Origin: a virus
Virus record (IMG/VR): IMGVR_UViG_3300027782_000040
Length of the DNA: 64,000 bases
Reading direction: 5' to 3' (one strand)
Position numbers and translations under genes: made by a program. Under the pieces are notes generated by a model. The model saw nothing but the letters and a program-made list of their open reading frames with translations, was not told where the DNA came from and made no database searches. Numbering within the stretch: the stretch's first letter is position 1; every line of letters begins with the position of its first letter. Shown piece after piece: positions 22,784 to 33,713 of the stretch.

Positions 22784-25222
22784 ATGGCAAATTCAAACAG
22801 AGTATTCGTTTCTCCAGGTGTTTATACATCAGAGAAGGATTTAACATTCGTAGCACAAAGTATAGGTGTTACAACATTGGGATTAGTGGGAGAAACCTTA
22901 AAAGGTCCAGCTAATGAACCAATATTAATTTCAAATTTTGACGAATTTAAAACATATTTCGGAAGTACATCACCTGAAAAAGATGGTAATGGTAATCCAA
23001 AATATGAATTAGGTTATGTCGCTAAATCTTATTTACAAGAGTCAAATCAATTATTTGTAACAAGAGTATTAGGTAAGACAGGTTATAAAGCAGGTAAAAC
23101 ATTCGGTATTAAAACATTAGGTACAGATGCAGATATTGTAGTGGTAGCATTAAGATCAAGAGGACATTATTCAGGAGAAACTTTAGTATTTGAAGTTACT
23201 GGAAATACATCCTTCGTTCTTAGTGGTGCAACATTAACAACTAATCCATTATCTGAATTTGATATTCATGTTACAGGTGCAACAGGTGGAGCTAAAGTTT
23301 TTACTTGTAGTTTAGACGTTACATCATCAAAATATATAACTAAAGTTTTAGGAACAAGTCCATATGATAAAGATAGAAGTGATGTTCCTTTATATGTTCA
23401 CGAAGTATATCCAAACTTAACTAAAAATTTATATCACCAAGGTATGATTAGTGGTTTAAGTTTTACTGAAGTATATAACGCTGAAGGTGACAATTTTTCA
23501 AATCCTTGGGCTTTTCCAACGTCACCTACTATAGTTTCTGAAGTAAGAGGTGGTAAAGTTGATGATTTATTTGATATAACCACAATTTCAGACGGAAACG
23601 CTGCAAATGAAGAAGTTAAAATTACAATTCAAAATATCAATATTGAAACAGGTGAATTTGACATACTAGTTAGAGATTTTAACGATACAGATGAAAACAT
23701 GTCAGTTTTAGAAAAATTCTCAAGATGTTCAATGAATCCTGATGTTGCGGGATATGTTGCTAGAAAGGTAGGAACATCAAATGGTGATTATACTTTGAAT
23801 TCTAAATATATTATGTTAAGTATGGACCCTAATGCACCATCAAATGCGTTCCCTGCTGGATTTAAAGGGTTTACAAACGCAACTTTATCAGGGTCAACAA
23901 AATTAGGTAATGTTCTTTATAAAACTGAATTTTTTGATTCAGGAGATGCGATTGGTCCAGCTGGATCACCATATTCAGCAACAACAAGTAACGGAGACAA
24001 ATATAGAAAAACATCTTTAGGTTTATCTTCAGATAGTAATTTTAGTTTTGACGCAGATTTGTTCAAATATAAAGGTTCAGGAACATTGAATAGTACTGAT
24101 GGATTTCACTTATCAACTAATGCATCTTCAATTACAGGTACAACATATCAAACAACGGGTTATGATTTGGAAGGTCAAACAGACGCCGCTAACAACAAAT
24201 TAACCAATATTAATTATCGTAAATTTACATTTGCAGTATGTGGTGGTTTTGATGGTTGGGATATCTACAGAAGAGTAAGAACATATGGAGATGCGTATAT
24301 ATTTGGAAAAACAACATACATTTCAGGTCTTACAACAAATGGTGGATTGTTTGACACTGCAAATGGAAACTCCGATTATTATGCTTATTTAGAAGGAATT
24401 CAAACATATGCAAACCCTGAAGCAATAGATATTAACGTATTCGCAACTCCAGGTATTAACTTCTACGACCATAGTTCATTAACAACTCAAGCAATTGACA
24501 TGATTGAAACCGATAGAGCGGATTCAATTTATATTATCGGAGCCCCAAATGAAACTGATGCAACTAACGTTATTGACGATTTAGACGGTATTGCGGTTGA
24601 TTCTAACTATTCAGCCACATATTGGCCTTGGATTCAAGTAAGAGACACAGATAACGCAACTCAATTATATATCCCACCAACAGGTGAGGTTGTTAAGAAT
24701 ATTGCCTTAACTGATAACGTATCTTATCCTTGGTTCGCAGTTGCGGGTTACAGTAGAGGTTTGGTAAACGCAATCAAAGCACAAAAGAAACTTACTCTTG
24801 ACGAAAGAGATGAGTTATATAAGGCAAGAATCAACCCAATTGCAACATTCTCTGATACAGGTACCATTATATGGGGTAACAAAACGTTACAAGTTAGAGA
24901 GTCAGCTTTAGATAGAATCAACGTAAGAAGATTGTTATTAAGAGCAAGGAAATTGATATCTGCAGTCGCTGTAAGGTTATTATTTGAACAAAATGACGAC
25001 CAAGTAAGACAAGAGTTCTTAAGATTGGTAAACCCTATCTTGGAATCAATTAAGAAAGAAAGAGGTTTATATGACTTCCGTGTAAGTGTATCTAATGACC
25101 CAGAGGACATCGATGCTAACACATTAAGAGGTAAGATTTACATCAAACCAACTCGTTCTTTAGAATTCATTGATTTGGAATTTGTAATCACTCCAACAGG
25201 AGCTTCATTCGACAATATCTAA
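22784..25222 (+). CDS. Contractile tail sheath protein (gp18-like)
   Basis: FVSPGVYTSEKD, GETLKGP, YSATYWPW, PWFAVAGYSRG, WGNKTLQ...LDRINVRRLL, FEQND, IKPTRSLEFI. Confidence 0.96.
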   Translation: MANSNRVFVSPGVYTSEKDLTFVAQSIGVTTLGLVGETLKGPANEPILISNFDEFKTYFGSTSPEKDGNGNPKYELGYVAKSYLQESNQLFVTRVLGKTGYKAGKTFGIKTLGTDADIVVVALRSRGHYSGETLVFEVTGNTSFVLSGATLTTNPLSEFDIHVTGATGGAKVFTCSLDVTSSKYITKVLGTSPYDKDRSDVPLYVHEVYPNLTKNLYHQGMISGLSFTEVYNAEGDNFSNPWAFPTSPTIVSEVRGGKVDDLFDITTISDGNAANEEVKITIQNINIETGEFDILVRDFNDTDENMSVLEKFSRCSMNPDVAGYVARKVGTSNGDYTLNSKYIMLSMDPNAPSNAFPAGFKGFTNATLSGSTKLGNVLYKTEFFDSGDAIGPAGSPYSATTSNGDKYRKTSLGLSSDSNFSFDADLFKYKGSGTLNSTDGFHLSTNASSITGTTYQTTGYDLEGQTDAANNKLTNINYRKFTFAVCGGFDGWDIYRRVRTYGDAYIFGKTTYISGLTTNGGLFDTANGNSDYYAYLEGIQTYANPEAIDINVFATPGINFYDHSSLTTQAIDMIETDRADSIYIIGAPNETDATNVIDDLDGIAVDSNYSATYWPWIQVRDTDNATQLYIPPTGEVVKNIALTDNVSYPWFAVAGYSRGLVNAIKAQKKLTLDERDELYKARINPIATFSDTGTIIWGNKTLQVRESALDRINVRRLLLRARKLISAVAVRLLFEQNDDQVRQEFLRLVNPILESIKKERGLYDFRVSVSNDPEDIDANTLRGKIYIKPTRSLEFIDLEFVITPTGASFDNI

Positions 25223-25544: not shown

Positions 25545-26033
25545 ATGGCAGATTTATTAATGAAAATGCCGGTTCCTTACGAACCGAAAAGAAAAAATAG
25601 ATTTATCCTAAGATTTCCATCATCTTTAGGAATAAATGAGTGGTATGTATTCTCCACAGCGAGACCATCTGCTAAAATTAAATCAGTTGAGATTCCTTTC
25701 TTGAACACAAAAACTTATGTTGCTGGTCAATTTGAGTGGGAAGAGATTAAAGTTCAATTTAAAGACCCAATTGGTCCTTCAGCTTCTCAAGCACTTATGG
25801 AATGGTTCCGTTTACATGCGGAGTCAGTTACAGGTCGTATGGGATATGCTGCGGGTTATAAGAAAGACATTGAATTGGAGATGTTAGACCCAACGGGAGT
25901 TGTGGTTGAAAAATGGATTTTACAAGGTTGTTTCTTAACAAGTTTGAACTTCGGTGATTTAGATTACTCAAGAGATGATTTGGCGACAATTGACGCTTCA
26001 TTAAGAATGGACCGTTGTATTCAAGTTTATTAA
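25545..26033 (+). CDS. Tail tube protein (gp19-like)
   Basis: YEPKRKNRF, RPS...VEIPFLN, W..I.V.F.DP, YKKDIELEMLDP.G.VVEKW.L.G. Confidence 0.92.
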   Translation: MADLLMKMPVPYEPKRKNRFILRFPSSLGINEWYVFSTARPSAKIKSVEIPFLNTKTYVAGQFEWEEIKVQFKDPIGPSASQALMEWFRLHAESVTGRMGYAAGYKKDIELEMLDPTGVVVEKWILQGCFLTSLNFGDLDYSRDDLATIDASLRMDRCIQVY

Positions 26034-26134: not shown

Positions 26135-26884
26135 ATGGACGAAACAAGAATAGACCCAACAATCGCATACGATGTGGTGGAATTACCAACTAAAGGTATC
26201 CATTATAAAAACAAAAATAAATCAGTTAGAGTTGCATACCTAACCGCAAGTGACGAAAACATTCTATCATCACCAAGTTTAATTGGTTCTGGTTTAGTTG
26301 TTGATGAATTACTAAAAAGAAAAATATTAGACAAAACGTTATCTGTTGATGAAATTGTTGATGAAGATAGACAAGCAATTCTTATATTTTTAAGAAATAC
26401 TGCTTTTGGTTCAGAATATACAATTACGGTAACTGACCCAAAGACAAATGAACCATTTACGGTTGATGTTGATTTAAGTGAAATTAAAGTGAAAGATTTT
26501 AAGTTAGAAGAAGATTCTAATGGTGAATATAAGTACTTCATGGAGAAAAGTAAAAATGATATTACATTTACTTTTTTATCATTAAAACAAGAAAAAGAAA
26601 TTGATGAAATTAGAAAAAGTTGGAATGGTAATGGAGTTGCTCCGATTATCACCAAACAACTTGAAATGATGATTAAGTCAGTTAATGGAAATAAAGATTT
26701 AATGAATATTAGAAATTTGATTGAAACCTTACCAATTAAGGATTCACAAAGTTTTAGAAAATTCATTAACCAAGTTAAACCGGGGTTGGATCTAACCCAA
26801 AATGTTACAACCCCGTCCGGAGAGACAATCCAAGTTGAAATTGGATTCGGGGTAGAATTTTTTCGTCCTTTCTACGGATTATAA
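26135..26884 (+). CDS. Tail/baseplate hub assembly chaperone (gp26-like)
   Basis: VELPTKG..Y, LTASDENIL, DRQAILIFLR..AFGSEY, C-terminal EFFRP; lies between tube and tape measure. Confidence 0.8.
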   Translation: MDETRIDPTIAYDVVELPTKGIHYKNKNKSVRVAYLTASDENILSSPSLIGSGLVVDELLKRKILDKTLSVDEIVDEDRQAILIFLRNTAFGSEYTITVTDPKTNEPFTVDVDLSEIKVKDFKLEEDSNGEYKYFMEKSKNDITFTFLSLKQEKEIDEIRKSWNGNGVAPIITKQLEMMIKSVNGNKDLMNIRNLIETLPIKDSQSFRKFINQVKPGLDLTQNVTTPSGETIQVEIGFGVEFFRPFYGL

Positions 26885-27017
26885 AAAAGGACAATTAGAC
26901 GAAATTTTATTTTTGGTTAAAAGAGGGTTCTCTTATGGGGACATCTTATCTATGCCAGTGTATATTAGAAGATACTATATTAATTATATGATAGAGAAAG
27001 AGACTGAAAATAGTTAA
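26862..27017 (+). CDS. +1-frame extension of the chaperone (gp51/GT-like), probably made by frameshifting
   Basis: FVLSTDYKKGQLDEILFLVKRGFSYGDILSMPVYIRRYYINYMIEKETENS; no suitable start; bounded upstream by an in-frame TAG at 26853. Confidence 0.75.
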   Translation, partial: FVLSTDYKKGQLDEILFLVKRGFSYGDILSMPVYIRRYYINYMIEKETENS

Positions 27018-28997: not shown

Positions 28998-31900
28998 ATG
29001 CCGAGTTATTTAGATTTTAATACAACAAAACAGTTTAGAAACCATATATTAGGTAAGACCTTACAAAAACCTAATGGACCTCAAACGTTTACAAATAGTT
29101 CATATGTTGAACAAAATCTAAGTGATATCCCTAATTTATTACAAGGTCAGGTAGACACTAATAGAATTAGTGATTTAACAATACCAAAGAACTCAAACAT
29201 ATATAAACCTGACGAATATTTTATTGGTGAAGTTATTAATACATTACCTCGTTCAGTTAATTTAAAGTTATACCCAAGTTTTGTTCAAACAGATTTAAGT
29301 TTATTCGGTATTATTAGTAATTCAAATTATGAAACTGAATCTGAATTAGTTAAGTTTTCAACTAGTTTAATTAAAAATGACCCACAAGGACCCGTTTATA
29401 GTAGAATAGCTCAAAATGTAGAAAAAAATACATTGGGTCGTGTAAGAATAATGGACGCCCTTAATGGTAATACAACTACTGCGGTTAACATATTAACAGG
29501 TAGAGAACCATTAATTGAATCAAACTACACAATCACGGTTGATAATACGTTAAGTATACCAGGTCAAGCGATTGATTTTCTAAAAACTGTTTCAGGTATA
29601 CAATTACCCTTTAGTCAAATACCAGGGGATTATTTAAGTAACCCAAGAAACCCGATAAACTATAGACCACAAGCGTCATCACAATTAGGTGCATTATTTC
29701 AAGACATAACAGGTGTATTAGGTTCATTAATAGGGATACAAAGACGACCATTGTTGTCAAGGAAACCATCCGACCTTTTGATTGAACATATGGGAAGTGG
29801 TCAAAAAAACAGGTTATATGACTTATTATCCTATTCAACATATGCACCAAATTATACCACAACCGCAAGATCACAAAACACATCTAAAATTTTTAATTTT
29901 ATTGATAAGGTTGCACAAGGGGTAAAAAACATTTTAGGTGTTGAGGCACCATCAGGTATCGCCTATATTGGAGACGATAGAGGTGAGGATGTAAAATATG
30001 CGATGAATGATTTTAATGATAGACCCGTAAGGAGTAACTATTATTTAACGTTAATGTTTGATAAAGTGTCAGCTGAATTATTTCACACAAATAAAAATAT
30101 TACAGAGGGAGGTTCAATCGGAGGTAAGTTAACTTGGATAAGTAATAAAGGATCCACCACAGATATAAATTTTCAAAACGTTAATGATGATTTATCTGTA
30201 AAATATGAGTTTAGACCTGATTCAATTTTAGGTAAAACACAAGAATTATTAAATTCAATGCCATCAGACGGAGGATCTCGTCGTTCACATGTTGCAAATG
30301 TTATTGACCAAACAAGTAAAGTATTTCAAGATGGGGATACAAGAATATCAAGAGGTTCCGCAGTTAAGTATACGGACAAATTTACAGGTGAAGAAAGTGG
30401 AGTTGAATATGCTAGAGTTTGGACGAAAGATAGACCATATATGACAAATTATGATACGATGCCGTTGGCAACAAATCAAAAAGATATTAACACAAAAAAA
30501 TACAAACAAACAGGAAGAAAATATAGAAGAGGTAATGTTAGAAGGTTTGAATCAAGTGTATTAAATGACACTTGGAATTTAAACATGGCACCAATGTCTA
30601 ATGGTAAAAAATCATTTGACGGATCAACAAATATTGTAGAGAAAAATGTAGGTTTAGGTGATTTTTATGCAAAGAAATATATGTTCTCAATTGAGAACTT
30701 AGCATGGAAAACATCTAACTTATCTGGATTCCAAGTAAGTGATTTACCTGCATGTGAAAAAGGAAATAATGGAGGTAGAGTTATGTGGTTTCCACCATAC
30801 GACTTAAAGATGAGCGAACAAAATAATGCAAATTGGGAAAAGAACTCATTTGTCGGAAGACCGGAACCAATTTATACATATCAAAATACTGAAAGAACTG
30901 GTCAAGTTTCATTTAAAGTTGTCGTTGACCATCCGAGTATTATGAATTTGTTAGTTAGAGAACATTTCAAAGGAATGTCAGATGAAGAATCCGATAACTA
31001 TATAAATGCATTTTTTGCTGGCGCACAAGACATTGATTTTTATTCATTAATACAAACATATACTACTTTAGATCAAAACGATAGAGATTTAATTCAACAA
31101 TACCTAAATGCTGGTGTTAAAAAAGAAACAATTGAAACAATTAAATATACTACCGAACAATTACCTAATGATGCTAATACTGATGTAAATAAAAATGAAC
31201 CTGTTAATTATGACACAAATAACATATTCTACTTTAAAAATGCTGAACCACCTGTAAATGGAAAAGTATTAACACAATCTCCCGATTATTATAGTAATTA
31301 TTATACACAATATATTGGAAGTCAATCGACATACATTACCAATTTAACATCCGCGATGAATAGTGCATTGTCTAATGCTGATAAAATTTTATTAATCGGT
31401 GACACAGGATCAACATCAAACCCAAGTGTTATCTCAGGACAAACTAATCAAATAATAACTGCATTTAGTGGGTTAACTACAAATTTTGAGGCATTAAATA
31501 AACAAATACTTGATTTAAAAACGGCATTATCTGGAAAAACAATTATTTCAGACACAAAAATAACAATATATACATCAACATCGGAAGCGGGAGATAACGA
31601 TAAGAATTTCTACTTAGGAATAAGAAGGGCGCATTCATTATTCCAACACATTTGGAATGAATTAGGAACATTCAAATATACGTGGTTTACCGAAAAGGAA
31701 TTAGCAACGTATGCCAAAAGTGGTTTACCTTTAAATACAAAAACAATCACTATAAAATATAAAGATATAGGATATGAATTAGATGGTAATATTATATTTG
31801 ATATAGGAACAATAGGTGAAAATAGTACATCACTAAATGGAACTAGTGTTGATTGTACAAAAGTATTTACTAATACCAATTTAAAAATATATTCCCCAAC

Positions 31901-33713
31901 GGCGTTTTACTGTAGACAGGGGTATGTTAAAATAAAATACGAAAAATCGTATGGTGAAAAAACACCACAAAAGATAAATAACCCAATTAGAAAACCGGTG
32001 GTTTTAAAGGATACTGTTGATATTACAATAAAGAAACCATCCATTGATGTAATGAAAAGAATCATTATGAAAACATTATCAGAATGTTTTTATTTTAAGA
32101 AATTAGAAGAAGATTCACCAGTGGCATTTAAATCTTTAACAGAAAAATTAAAATATTTTCATCCGGCTTTTCACTCTACAACGCCAGAAGGATTAAATGG
32201 TAGATTAACATTCTTATTACAATGTTTAAGACCTGGAGATACCATACCAATTAAAGGTCTTTCAGATAACACAGATATTGGGGCAAGAAATACAACTTTC
32301 GGACCACCACCAATTTGTGTATTAAGAATTGGTGATTTTTATCATTCAAAAATTATTATTAAAGATGTTAATATAACATACGAAGAAGGGGTTTGGGATT
32401 TTAATCCTGAGGGCATAGGTGTACAACCTATGATTGCCAACGTTCAATTACAAATAACATTTATTGGTGGACAAGGATTAGATAGACCTGTTGAAAAATT
32501 ACAAAATGCGTTATCATCAAATTTCTTTGCAAATACGGAAATGTATGATGAGAGGTCAATACCAACAGACGGTAGGATTGGTTATGAGAATAAAGAAAAA
32601 TTCACAAAAGAATTTTTACAGACATTAAATAATTTTGATATTGCAAAAACCGCATCAGTTCCTACAGATACAAATAAACCAACACAAGGTGAATTTATTG
32701 GAACGGGTATCGGTACTAAATTAGTATATACAACTATTGTTGATGATTTTTACACCAAATCTGTAAATTATACTAATATATATAAATCAGCATACGAACA
32801 AATTTATAAATCATATGGACCTAAAGTAAGTGGTTTATTTTTCTCACCAAATTATAGAACAATATTTGAAGCAACAATAGCAGGTGGTTATTCACCATTA
32901 CCAATGTTTGGACAATACTCAGGAACAACTGTATTATTAGATTATATGGATAACTTTAAAGAATCTATGTATAATTCCATATCGGCAAATTTAATGATGG
33001 ATTTACTTGGATTTAATTTAGGTGGAGGAGATATACAAGCCCAAGCTGAAAGTATAATAACACCTATTATTATAAAAATAGTAAATGATAAAATTGATGA
33101 ATTTAGTAATCTAACTCCGATAAAAGATTTAGAAAAGTCTAGAAATGAAATGGTCGGTTTAATCGACAAGTTAAATTATGTTGTTTCAGTTTCTGGAGAT
33201 ACAAAAATTTCAGGAACGACATTAATTAAATTAACATTTCCGACTGGTTTTAATACAATTGATTTCACATTAAATTATGATAATGTAATTGAATATTTAA
33301 GAACATTTAATAATAATAGAGATAATCTTTATGATTCGGGTTTTGACTTTAATACTTTGACAACAATAAATGTGGACGATTTAAAAGATATTTTAAAATT
33401 ATTTTTAGTTAATAGTAAATCAGAAATTATTAGACCATTAATTGATTCATTTAATGAAGACGACATGATGATAGGAATTATAGAAACTTTTTATGGTATT
33501 TTTGATACATTTGTTAGTCCTGACCCATTAATACTCATAAATTCTATAATTACATTAGAAACCGCACCACTAAAAAGAAACAGTAATTCAATTGAATATG
33601 AAACATCAGTAGATAGTCCATATACAATTGAAATAGAAGACCCTAATGATGATATATTCAAAATATTCTCACCAAAAAATAACCTTGGAGCAACTTTAAA
33701 TTTTTATAGATAA
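28998..33713 (+). CDS. Large baseplate/tube-initiator-like protein with an inserted OmpA-like segment
   Basis: FPPYDL..SE...ANW....VGRPEPIYTY.NTER and PPICVLRIGD...VNITY...W are halves of a tube-like domain; N..LG.RRA motif lies between them. Confidence 0.6.
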   Translation: MPSYLDFNTTKQFRNHILGKTLQKPNGPQTFTNSSYVEQNLSDIPNLLQGQVDTNRISDLTIPKNSNIYKPDEYFIGEVINTLPRSVNLKLYPSFVQTDLSLFGIISNSNYETESELVKFSTSLIKNDPQGPVYSRIAQNVEKNTLGRVRIMDALNGNTTTAVNILTGREPLIESNYTITVDNTLSIPGQAIDFLKTVSGIQLPFSQIPGDYLSNPRNPINYRPQASSQLGALFQDITGVLGSLIGIQRRPLLSRKPSDLLIEHMGSGQKNRLYDLLSYSTYAPNYTTTARSQNTSKIFNFIDKVAQGVKNILGVEAPSGIAYIGDDRGEDVKYAMNDFNDRPVRSNYYLTLMFDKVSAELFHTNKNITEGGSIGGKLTWISNKGSTTDINFQNVNDDLSVKYEFRPDSILGKTQELLNSMPSDGGSRRSHVANVIDQTSKVFQDGDTRISRGSAVKYTDKFTGEESGVEYARVWTKDRPYMTNYDTMPLATNQKDINTKKYKQTGRKYRRGNVRRFESSVLNDTWNLNMAPMSNGKKSFDGSTNIVEKNVGLGDFYAKKYMFSIENLAWKTSNLSGFQVSDLPACEKGNNGGRVMWFPPYDLKMSEQNNANWEKNSFVGRPEPIYTYQNTERTGQVSFKVVVDHPSIMNLLVREHFKGMSDEESDNYINAFFAGAQDIDFYSLIQTYTTLDQNDRDLIQQYLNAGVKKETIETIKYTTEQLPNDANTDVNKNEPVNYDTNNIFYFKNAEPPVNGKVLTQSPDYYSNYYTQYIGSQSTYITNLTSAMNSALSNADKILLIGDTGSTSNPSVISGQTNQIITAFSGLTTNFEALNKQILDLKTALSGKTIISDTKITIYTSTSEAGDNDKNFYLGIRRAHSLFQHIWNELGTFKYTWFTEKELATYAKSGLPLNTKTITIKYKDIGYELDGNIIFDIGTIGENSTSLNGTSVDCTKVFTNTNLKIYSPTAFYCRQGYVKIKYEKSYGEKTPQKINNPIRKPVVLKDTVDITIKKPSIDVMKRIIMKTLSECFYFKKLEEDSPVAFKSLTEKLKYFHPAFHSTTPEGLNGRLTFLLQCLRPGDTIPIKGLSDNTDIGARNTTFGPPPICVLRIGDFYHSKIIIKDVNITYEEGVWDFNPEGIGVQPMIANVQLQITFIGGQGLDRPVEKLQNALSSNFFANTEMYDERSIPTDGRIGYENKEKFTKEFLQTLNNFDIAKTASVPTDTNKPTQGEFIGTGIGTKLVYTTIVDDFYTKSVNYTNIYKSAYEQIYKSYGPKVSGLFFSPNYRTIFEATIAGGYSPLPMFGQYSGTTVLLDYMDNFKESMYNSISANLMMDLLGFNLGGGDIQAQAESIITPIIIKIVNDKIDEFSNLTPIKDLEKSRNEMVGLIDKLNYVVSVSGDTKISGTTLIKLTFPTGFNTIDFTLNYDNVIEYLRTFNNNRDNLYDSGFDFNTLTTINVDDLKDILKLFLVNSKSEIIRPLIDSFNEDDMMIGIIETFYGIFDTFVSPDPLILINSIITLETAPLKRNSNSIEYETSVDSPYTIEIEDPNDDIFKIFSPKNNLGATLNFYR

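Follow-up and report, generated by a model that had tools for sequence, protein, structure and literature searches.

A candidate programmed +1 frameshift at a conserved UUU_Y site in phage genes of the T4 gp26/gp51 family

Recoded tail assembly chaperones and +1 shift sites

Frameshifted pairs of tail assembly chaperones (TACs) are regarded as near-universal in long-tailed phages, with T4 as the named exception (PMC5009743). [quoted passage not shown] Here we describe a locus of comparable layout in a 64,000-nt stretch of DNA from a large lake phage (IMG/VR record IMGVR_UViG_3300027782_000040; hereafter, the window), in which a short product would likewise come from normal decoding and a rare extension from a shift near the 3' end, the second ORF likewise lacks its own start, and the gene lies between a tube gene and what is, by position, a probable tape measure gene. 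Direction and signal set it apart from lambda, with a proposed +1 shift on UUU_Y in place of a -1 shift on an X_XXY_YYZ heptamer. It also shows no detectable sequence similarity to gpG, a protein of ~140 aa, whereas the product here has 249 aa and belongs to PF12322. An earlier note on this DNA, made from the sequence alone, had drawn the analogy to G/GT. The analogy is supported by the overlapping startless ORF, the conserved offset and the conserved slippery site near the 3' end, the offset being +1 and not the usual -1.

A +1 direction has been proposed before for the archaeal myovirus HSTV-2 (PMC5009743). In bacteria, UUU_Ynn is prone to +1 shifting even without a stop codon, and UUU_Y sites of this kind are found in E. 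coli argI and Yersinia YopN-TyeA (PMC5009743). As in argI and YopN-TyeA, the site described here is an in-frame UUU with a pyrimidine after it; the A site holds no stop codon, and an RNA structure is not obligatory. Unlike them, it forms part of a conserved cassette of 12 nt, UUU YUU UGG/UAY/CGY CCU, shared across phages from four or more bacterial phyla. The earlier note had regarded the motif as one otherwise known from eukaryotic viruses, which is incorrect, since UUU_Y is a known bacterial +1 shift site (PMC5009743). Its comparison was with the UUU_CGN of influenza A PA-X and the amalgaviruses, and the UUU_CGU_C of the window does have the same core letters. Those viral sites are read by eukaryotic ribosomes, on which CGU is slow. 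In the present family, CGY occurs in 34 of 193 distinct members and the conserved element is UUU_Y; CGU is moreover the second commonest Arg codon of the window.

The T4 members of the family, gp26 and gp51, are listed as hub assembly chaperones, of which gp51 is essential and absent from the particle (PMC3004832). A full-text literature search that covered few subscription journals returned no paper linking gp26 or gp51 to a frameshift. Frameshifted chaperones as such are well known; what is added here comprises the TAC-like fold, the codon statistics at the site, the tally of 240 in 241 loci, and the finding of both -1 variants and members in Firmicute phages.

The chaperone gene, its neighbors and its reading frames

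By its profile matches, the gene at 26135-26884 is a member of the T4 gp26/gp51 family (PF12322, phrog_150). The 249-aa product scored 36.6 bits against PF12322 (T4_baseplate; cut-off 24.5) and matched phrog_150 ('baseplate hub') at 7e-12, or at 4.6e-13 when the fusion described below was used. Upstream are the sheath gene and then the tube gene, and downstream is a gene for a 641-aa protein (Table 1). The slot of the latter is annotated as tape measure in Flavobacterium phage immuto, Bacillus phage HSE3 and Listeria phage LIS04. The 641-aa protein itself gave no match in Pfam, PHROG or NCBIfam, nor did BLASTP align it with the tape measure of immuto, and blastn of the locus DNA against cultured phages returned no match. 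Further downstream, residues 590-655 (30765-30965) of a 1571-aa ORF (28998-33713) form a 66-residue segment in common with immuto gp235 (E 4e-5), and no other link was seen when the large downstream proteins of the window and of immuto were compared.

Table 1. Features of the chaperone locus and its surroundings in the window
Feature	Coordinates	Strand	Size or basis
Tail sheath gene	22784..25222	+	PF04984 and PF17482; phrog_23 at 8.8e-68
Tail tube gene, T4 gp19-like	25545..26033	+	phrog_4542 4.2e-26; PF06841 1.4e-5, 25.4 bits, under the 28.2-bit cut-off
0-frame ORF, gp26/gp51-family chaperone (short gp26-like product)	26135..26884	+	249 aa
TAG closing the +1 frame (5' limit of the shift window)	26853..26855	+	sequence
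Shift cassette TTT TTT CGT CCT	26858..26869	+	TTT_Y at the same two codons in 191/191 distinct +1 relatives
+1-frame extension, 50 codons + TAA (putative gp51-like C-terminal helical domain)	26865..27017	+	profile match and model
Probable tape measure gene, 641 aa	27035..28960	+	position only

In the 0 frame, the gene ends with GTA (26852) GAA TTT (26858) TTT (26861) CGT (26864) CCT TTC TAC GGA TTA TAA (26882-84). The +1 frame is closed by the TAG at 26853-55 and then stays open for ~53-54 codons (NFFVLSTDYKKGQLDEILFLVKRGFSYGDILSMPVYIRRYYINYMIEKETENS) as far as the TAA at 27015-17, and the -1 frame meets a stop ~12 codons past the T run. The earliest ATG, GTG or TTG of the +1 ORF is a TTG at 26913, which lies 3' of the conserved LSTDYKKGQLDEI. 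Because the TAG closes the +1 frame upstream and no start precedes LSTDYKKGQLDEI, a shift must fall in 26856-26881. Coordinates were re-read from the sequence, and the earlier note proved accurate on the frame layout, on the interval in which a shift is needed and on the lack of a usable start, a point on which the comparative data agree. A shift at TTT_C yields a 293-aa fusion (P0003). An open +1 frame of ~54 codons has a chance of ~1% in DNA of 31% GC (estimated from base composition); the decisive evidence is the conserved +1 offset in 240 of 241 related loci, not the length of the open frame.

Conservation of the offset and of the slip site

Related loci were taken from IMG/VR in three scans seeded with the window, the 484-kb phage LR756508 and immuto, and the N-domain and C-peptide of each were placed by HMMs in all frames. 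Joint alignment of the short +1 peptides with the N-domains misplaced the peptides and was left out. Among the 241 loci with both domains, the C-peptide was in the +1 frame in 240, in the -1 frame in one and in frame in none; three further loci were cut by the contig end. The relatives thereby support the +1 fusion read in the earlier note and show the frame offset to be conserved. The 120 listed protein homologues (98% down to 73% identity) were 249 aa long, apart from one of 227 aa, and covered 83% of the fusion. When the 53-aa +1 peptide was searched against 1.84 billion representative proteins, 29 clusters were recovered, small ORFs bar three longer ones, and none of the representatives was a full-length in-frame fusion. 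The layout is common to the cultured phages Microcystis Mel-JY01 and Flavobacterium immuto and is the same in Bacillus HSE3, Bacillus SP-15, Listeria LIS04 and Streptococcus GXN1.

The overlapping frames might be put down to decay of the gene by mutation or to an indel that arose in T6 during assembly, given that homopolymer runs are error-prone and that one database entry, P0126, is in frame after a frame change ~10 codons upstream. Against such an artefact, the same offset is seen in 240 independent assemblies, whose proteins range from 25 to 98% identity, as well as in genomes of isolates that different groups sequenced. An assembly indel in T6 is excluded because 240 of 241 related loci share the +1 offset, and we consider the probability of artefact or decay to be negligible. 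P0126, a 158-aa fragment and one of the three longer entries among the 29 clusters, was the sole case of in-frame read-through. The change of frame lies 5' of the FF codons, between GEQVTLE and STLGLTFFALS; either a sequencing error or a natural fusion could account for it.

The four codons of the cassette were compared in 198 unique ORFs. The first was TTT in 194 and TTC in 4; the second was TTT in 174, CTT in 22, CTA in one and TTC in one; the third was TGG in 134, CGY in 40, TAY in 21 and TTC in 3; and the fourth was CCT in 195. TTC makes up 23% of the Phe codons elsewhere in the same genes (Fisher p ~1e-16, relatedness not corrected for). The wobble positions of the T run are thus held at the nucleotide level, because the TTT excess is far beyond the Phe codon bias of these genes. 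An in-frame TTT followed by a pyrimidine was present within the two codons in all 191 distinct +1 members, and the window has both TTT_T and TTT_C. The variants TTC TTT CGC, TTC TTT TGG, TTT CTT TGG and TTT CTA TTC each retain one in-frame TTT_Y. Only the second Phe codon is usable in TTC TTT CGC (L036), TTC TTT TGG and TTC TTT CGT (HSE3, GXN1), and also in L146, while only the first is usable in TTT CTA (L084) and TTT TTT AGT (LIS04). The shifting codon is therefore not fixed across the family, and re-pairing of tRNA-Phe from UUU to UUY is the sole rule that fits all +1 members.

The sequence in most relatives is UUU_UUU_UGG_CCU. In 193 distinct members, the A-site codon was TGG in 132, CGY in 34 and TAY in 21; apart from two Firmicute phages, CGY was confined to the clade of the window. 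When the conservation of TTT CG(N) was examined, as the earlier note had proposed, CGN was not the part that is kept, the A site being mostly TGG. The note had also allowed for a -2 shift. Such a shift is possible in the window, but as a general route it is ruled out by the relatives with TTC TTT CGC.

We think it likely that programmed +1 ribosomal slippage at UUU_Y gives rise to a G/GT-like pair of proteins. Most ribosomes would stay in frame and stop at 26882-84, releasing the 249-aa gp26-like protein. A minority would pause with tRNA-Phe on the UUU at 26861-63 in the P site and CGU in the A site, and the P-site UUU would then re-pair to UUC (26862-64). The slipped ribosomes would go on to make the 293-aa protein with its predicted three-helix, gp51-like C-terminal domain. 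By analogy to lambda G/GT, both forms may bind the tape measure or the hub complex, and the extra domain of the rare long form may recruit the next component.

The same product sequence would result if RNA polymerase dropped one U in the T run, so that some mRNAs encoded the fusion in frame. TTT TTT is present at the site in 169 of 193 distinct relatives, in most of which the run extends to T7 or T8, and the window has T6. Runs of 6-7 are short for efficient transcriptional slippage. The +1 layout is, however, kept in 28 distinct members with interrupted runs (21 with TTT CTT, six with TTC TTT and one with TTT CTA), in which the longest runs are of 3-4 T, and the -1 variants described below use ribosomal heptamers. 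Transcriptional slippage cannot account for these 28 members and is an improbable explanation for the family, though in members with T7 it could play a part.

A further alternative to ribosomal slippage is that no recoding takes place and that the +1 ORF is made alone, either through termination-coupled reinitiation at the upstream stop or from a start of non-canonical type. Annotators do place small ORFs at the +1 region, some upstream ATG, GTG or TTG exists within the open +1 window in 111 of 177 distinct contexts, and L084 has an ATG just ahead of the site. Nevertheless, in 59 of the 177 contexts there is no +1 ATG, GTG or TTG until more than five codons past the site, hence none before the L-[ST]-x-[DE]-Y motif, and the window likewise has no start before it. 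The earlier note had named an independent start in homologues as evidence against a frameshift; such a start is absent from these 59 contexts. What is conserved also speaks for the fusion. Conservation of the +1 peptide begins exactly at the FF codons, with Leu at position 2 in 174 of 177 distinct contexts followed by [ST]-x-[DE]-Y, while the 0 frame stops 1-8 codons past CCT and its residues there are variable. Separate translation is further opposed by the wobble conservation of the T run, far above codon bias, and by T4 gp51, in which the homologous domain is fused in frame.

The argument is extended by lineages in which the frame has changed and a -1 heptamer has been gained at the same spot. 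In one locus, L158, the downstream frame is -1 and a canonical heptamer, A_AAU_UUC, is present at the FF site (L158:2140-2300). With this proper heptamer, L158 was not taken for an assembly error. In the 595-kb phage LR756511 (L254:1880-2120), the frame is also -1, with G_GGU_UUU or U_UUU_UUC at the FF site. The two are not each other's relatives on the N-domain tree, and on this evidence the direction of recoding has apparently switched at least twice. The conserved thing, as read from these sequences, is the fusion and not one mechanism. A change of direction with the fusion retained is hard to explain except by recoding, and we regard separate translation of the +1 ORF as very improbable, less so only than an artefact.

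Candidate stimulators of slippage were also sought. Neither folding nor alifold revealed a conserved RNA structure around the site. RNA folding around the site of the window gave a z of -0.9, and a 7-bp hairpin that starts at the A-site codon (GUCCUUU/AAAGGAC, 14-nt loop, 26865-26892) was not significant; alifold retrieved it neither in the window's clade nor in two wider clades, which also showed no shared structure. An RNA stimulator was rejected on these two grounds. A Shine-Dalgarno-like GGGGU, 8 nt ahead of the second UUU, is invariant in the clade of the window alone and absent from the other clades, and no such element is conserved across the whole family. As a family feature, such a stimulator was discarded, being confined to one clade and, at 8 nt, too far away for a prfB-type effect. 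The site differs from prfB-type +1 sites in having a sense codon in the A site and GGGGU 8 nt, not 3 nt, upstream. Within the window's clade, TTY GGG GTN (26846-26856 in the window) is invariant though the +1 frame is non-coding there; GGG is a rare Gly codon in the window (4.7 per 1000, vs 40 for GGT). CGU is not a rare codon in the window, where at 5.1 per 1000 it is the second commonest for Arg, and slowness of the A site at CGU is therefore an assumption. CGC does not occur in the 42 long ORFs of the window. About half of the relatives in its clade (L036-L082) nevertheless have CGC in the A site, a pattern consistent with slow decoding of the codon at which the shift would take place.

The two predicted products, T4 gp26 and gp51, and the predicted fold

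The phrog_150 profile has 282 positions. The 0-frame product of the window aligns with positions 13-233 and T4 gp26 (208 aa) with 14-235, and the fusion and T4 gp51 (249 aa) both align with 13-280; the +1 extension adds +3.9 bits. The C-terminus of T4 gp26 (...KEFFELL) lies just past the same EFF motif, and gp51 runs on in frame into a domain that can be aligned with the +1 peptide. The family of the gp51 C-terminus, phrog_634, was the top family for 2 of 21 +1 peptides (best E 0.0012), and hhalign placed the +1-peptide profile on gp51 residues 218-246 (E 0.047). These matches weakly suggest that the extension is homologous to the gp51 C-terminus. The gp51-like nature ascribed to it in the earlier note is upheld, with the fusion spanning phrog_150 as gp51 does and the phrog_634 and hhalign matches being weak.

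T4 has two members of the same family, of which gp26 ends at the profile position of the 0-frame product and gp51 carries an additional C-terminal domain. The gp51 gene is located just upstream of genes 27-28-29. The T4 arrangement differs in that two separate genes are used without a frameshift; gp26 has TTC TTT G, which is not UUU_Y, and gene 25 comes directly next. LR756508 has one PF12322 gene against the two of T4, and one was also found in the virus record nearest to the window (212 kb, 63% complete).

The fusion was modelled with AlphaFold2 from an alignment of 71 relatives (pLDDT 90, pTM 0.77), and the extension was predicted as three helices (pLDDT 78-87). In a fold search of core residues 55-240 against 48,161 PDB chains, the best three were 3fgx (Z 5.8, 91/96 residues aligned), B. 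subtilis YqbN (3klu; Z 5.3), which we take to be an XkdN-type TAC, and the HK97 tail assembly chaperone (2ob9; Z 5.0, 96/104 aligned). Between 71 and 95% of each of these targets was covered, with Z under 8 and so below the tool's own safe level. The lower rows began with 5ir0 (4.4) and continued at 4.2 or less, most others at 3.3 or less; after the top three, two small mobile-element proteins appeared among unrelated chains. No match came from the PDB with Foldseek, nor from its sequences when these were searched by profile. The fold match is weak but specific, and the modelled core, which resembles those of the HK97 and XkdN-type TACs, likely has a tail-assembly-chaperone-like fold.

Taken together, an ancestral FF-site frameshift in PF12322, a gene split in T4 and a sense-codon stimulator make up a tentative joint reading, to which we would assign slightly less than an even chance. 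In T4-type myophages and many jumbo myophages, the PF12322 proteins would serve as tail assembly chaperones, expressed ancestrally by frameshifting at the FF codons, in most cases by +1 on the UUU_Y of UUU_YUU_UGG_CCU. T4 would have resolved one recoded gene into two paralogues, by which its status as an exception would be explained. The conserved aromatic or Arg codon that follows the slip codon, together with CCU, would be a new +1 sense-codon stimulator, active in Bacteroidota, Cyanobacteria and Firmicutes.

If this is true, the T4 exception vanishes, with gp26 as the short form and gp51 as the long form, separately encoded, and two T4 proteins that are essential but of still unclear role (PMC3004832) acquire a testable model. 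The family would be among the largest and most deeply conserved cases of +1 sense-codon frameshifting in bacteria, with a 12-nt signal that works without a stop codon or RNA structure in phages of at least four phyla. In phage genomes numbering in the thousands, gene callers would be misannotating the locus as a small hypothetical ORF next to a hub subunit.

Two Cys-x-x-Cys pairs, zinc-ribbon-like in appearance, are present in T4 gp26 and gp51 and in the proteins of LR756508, LR756511 and HSE3. All four Cys are gone in the window's clade (P0001 residues ~100-108 and 225-232), in immuto and in Mel-JY01, and in this respect the protein of the window differs from both gp26 and gp51 of T4, each of which keeps the four.
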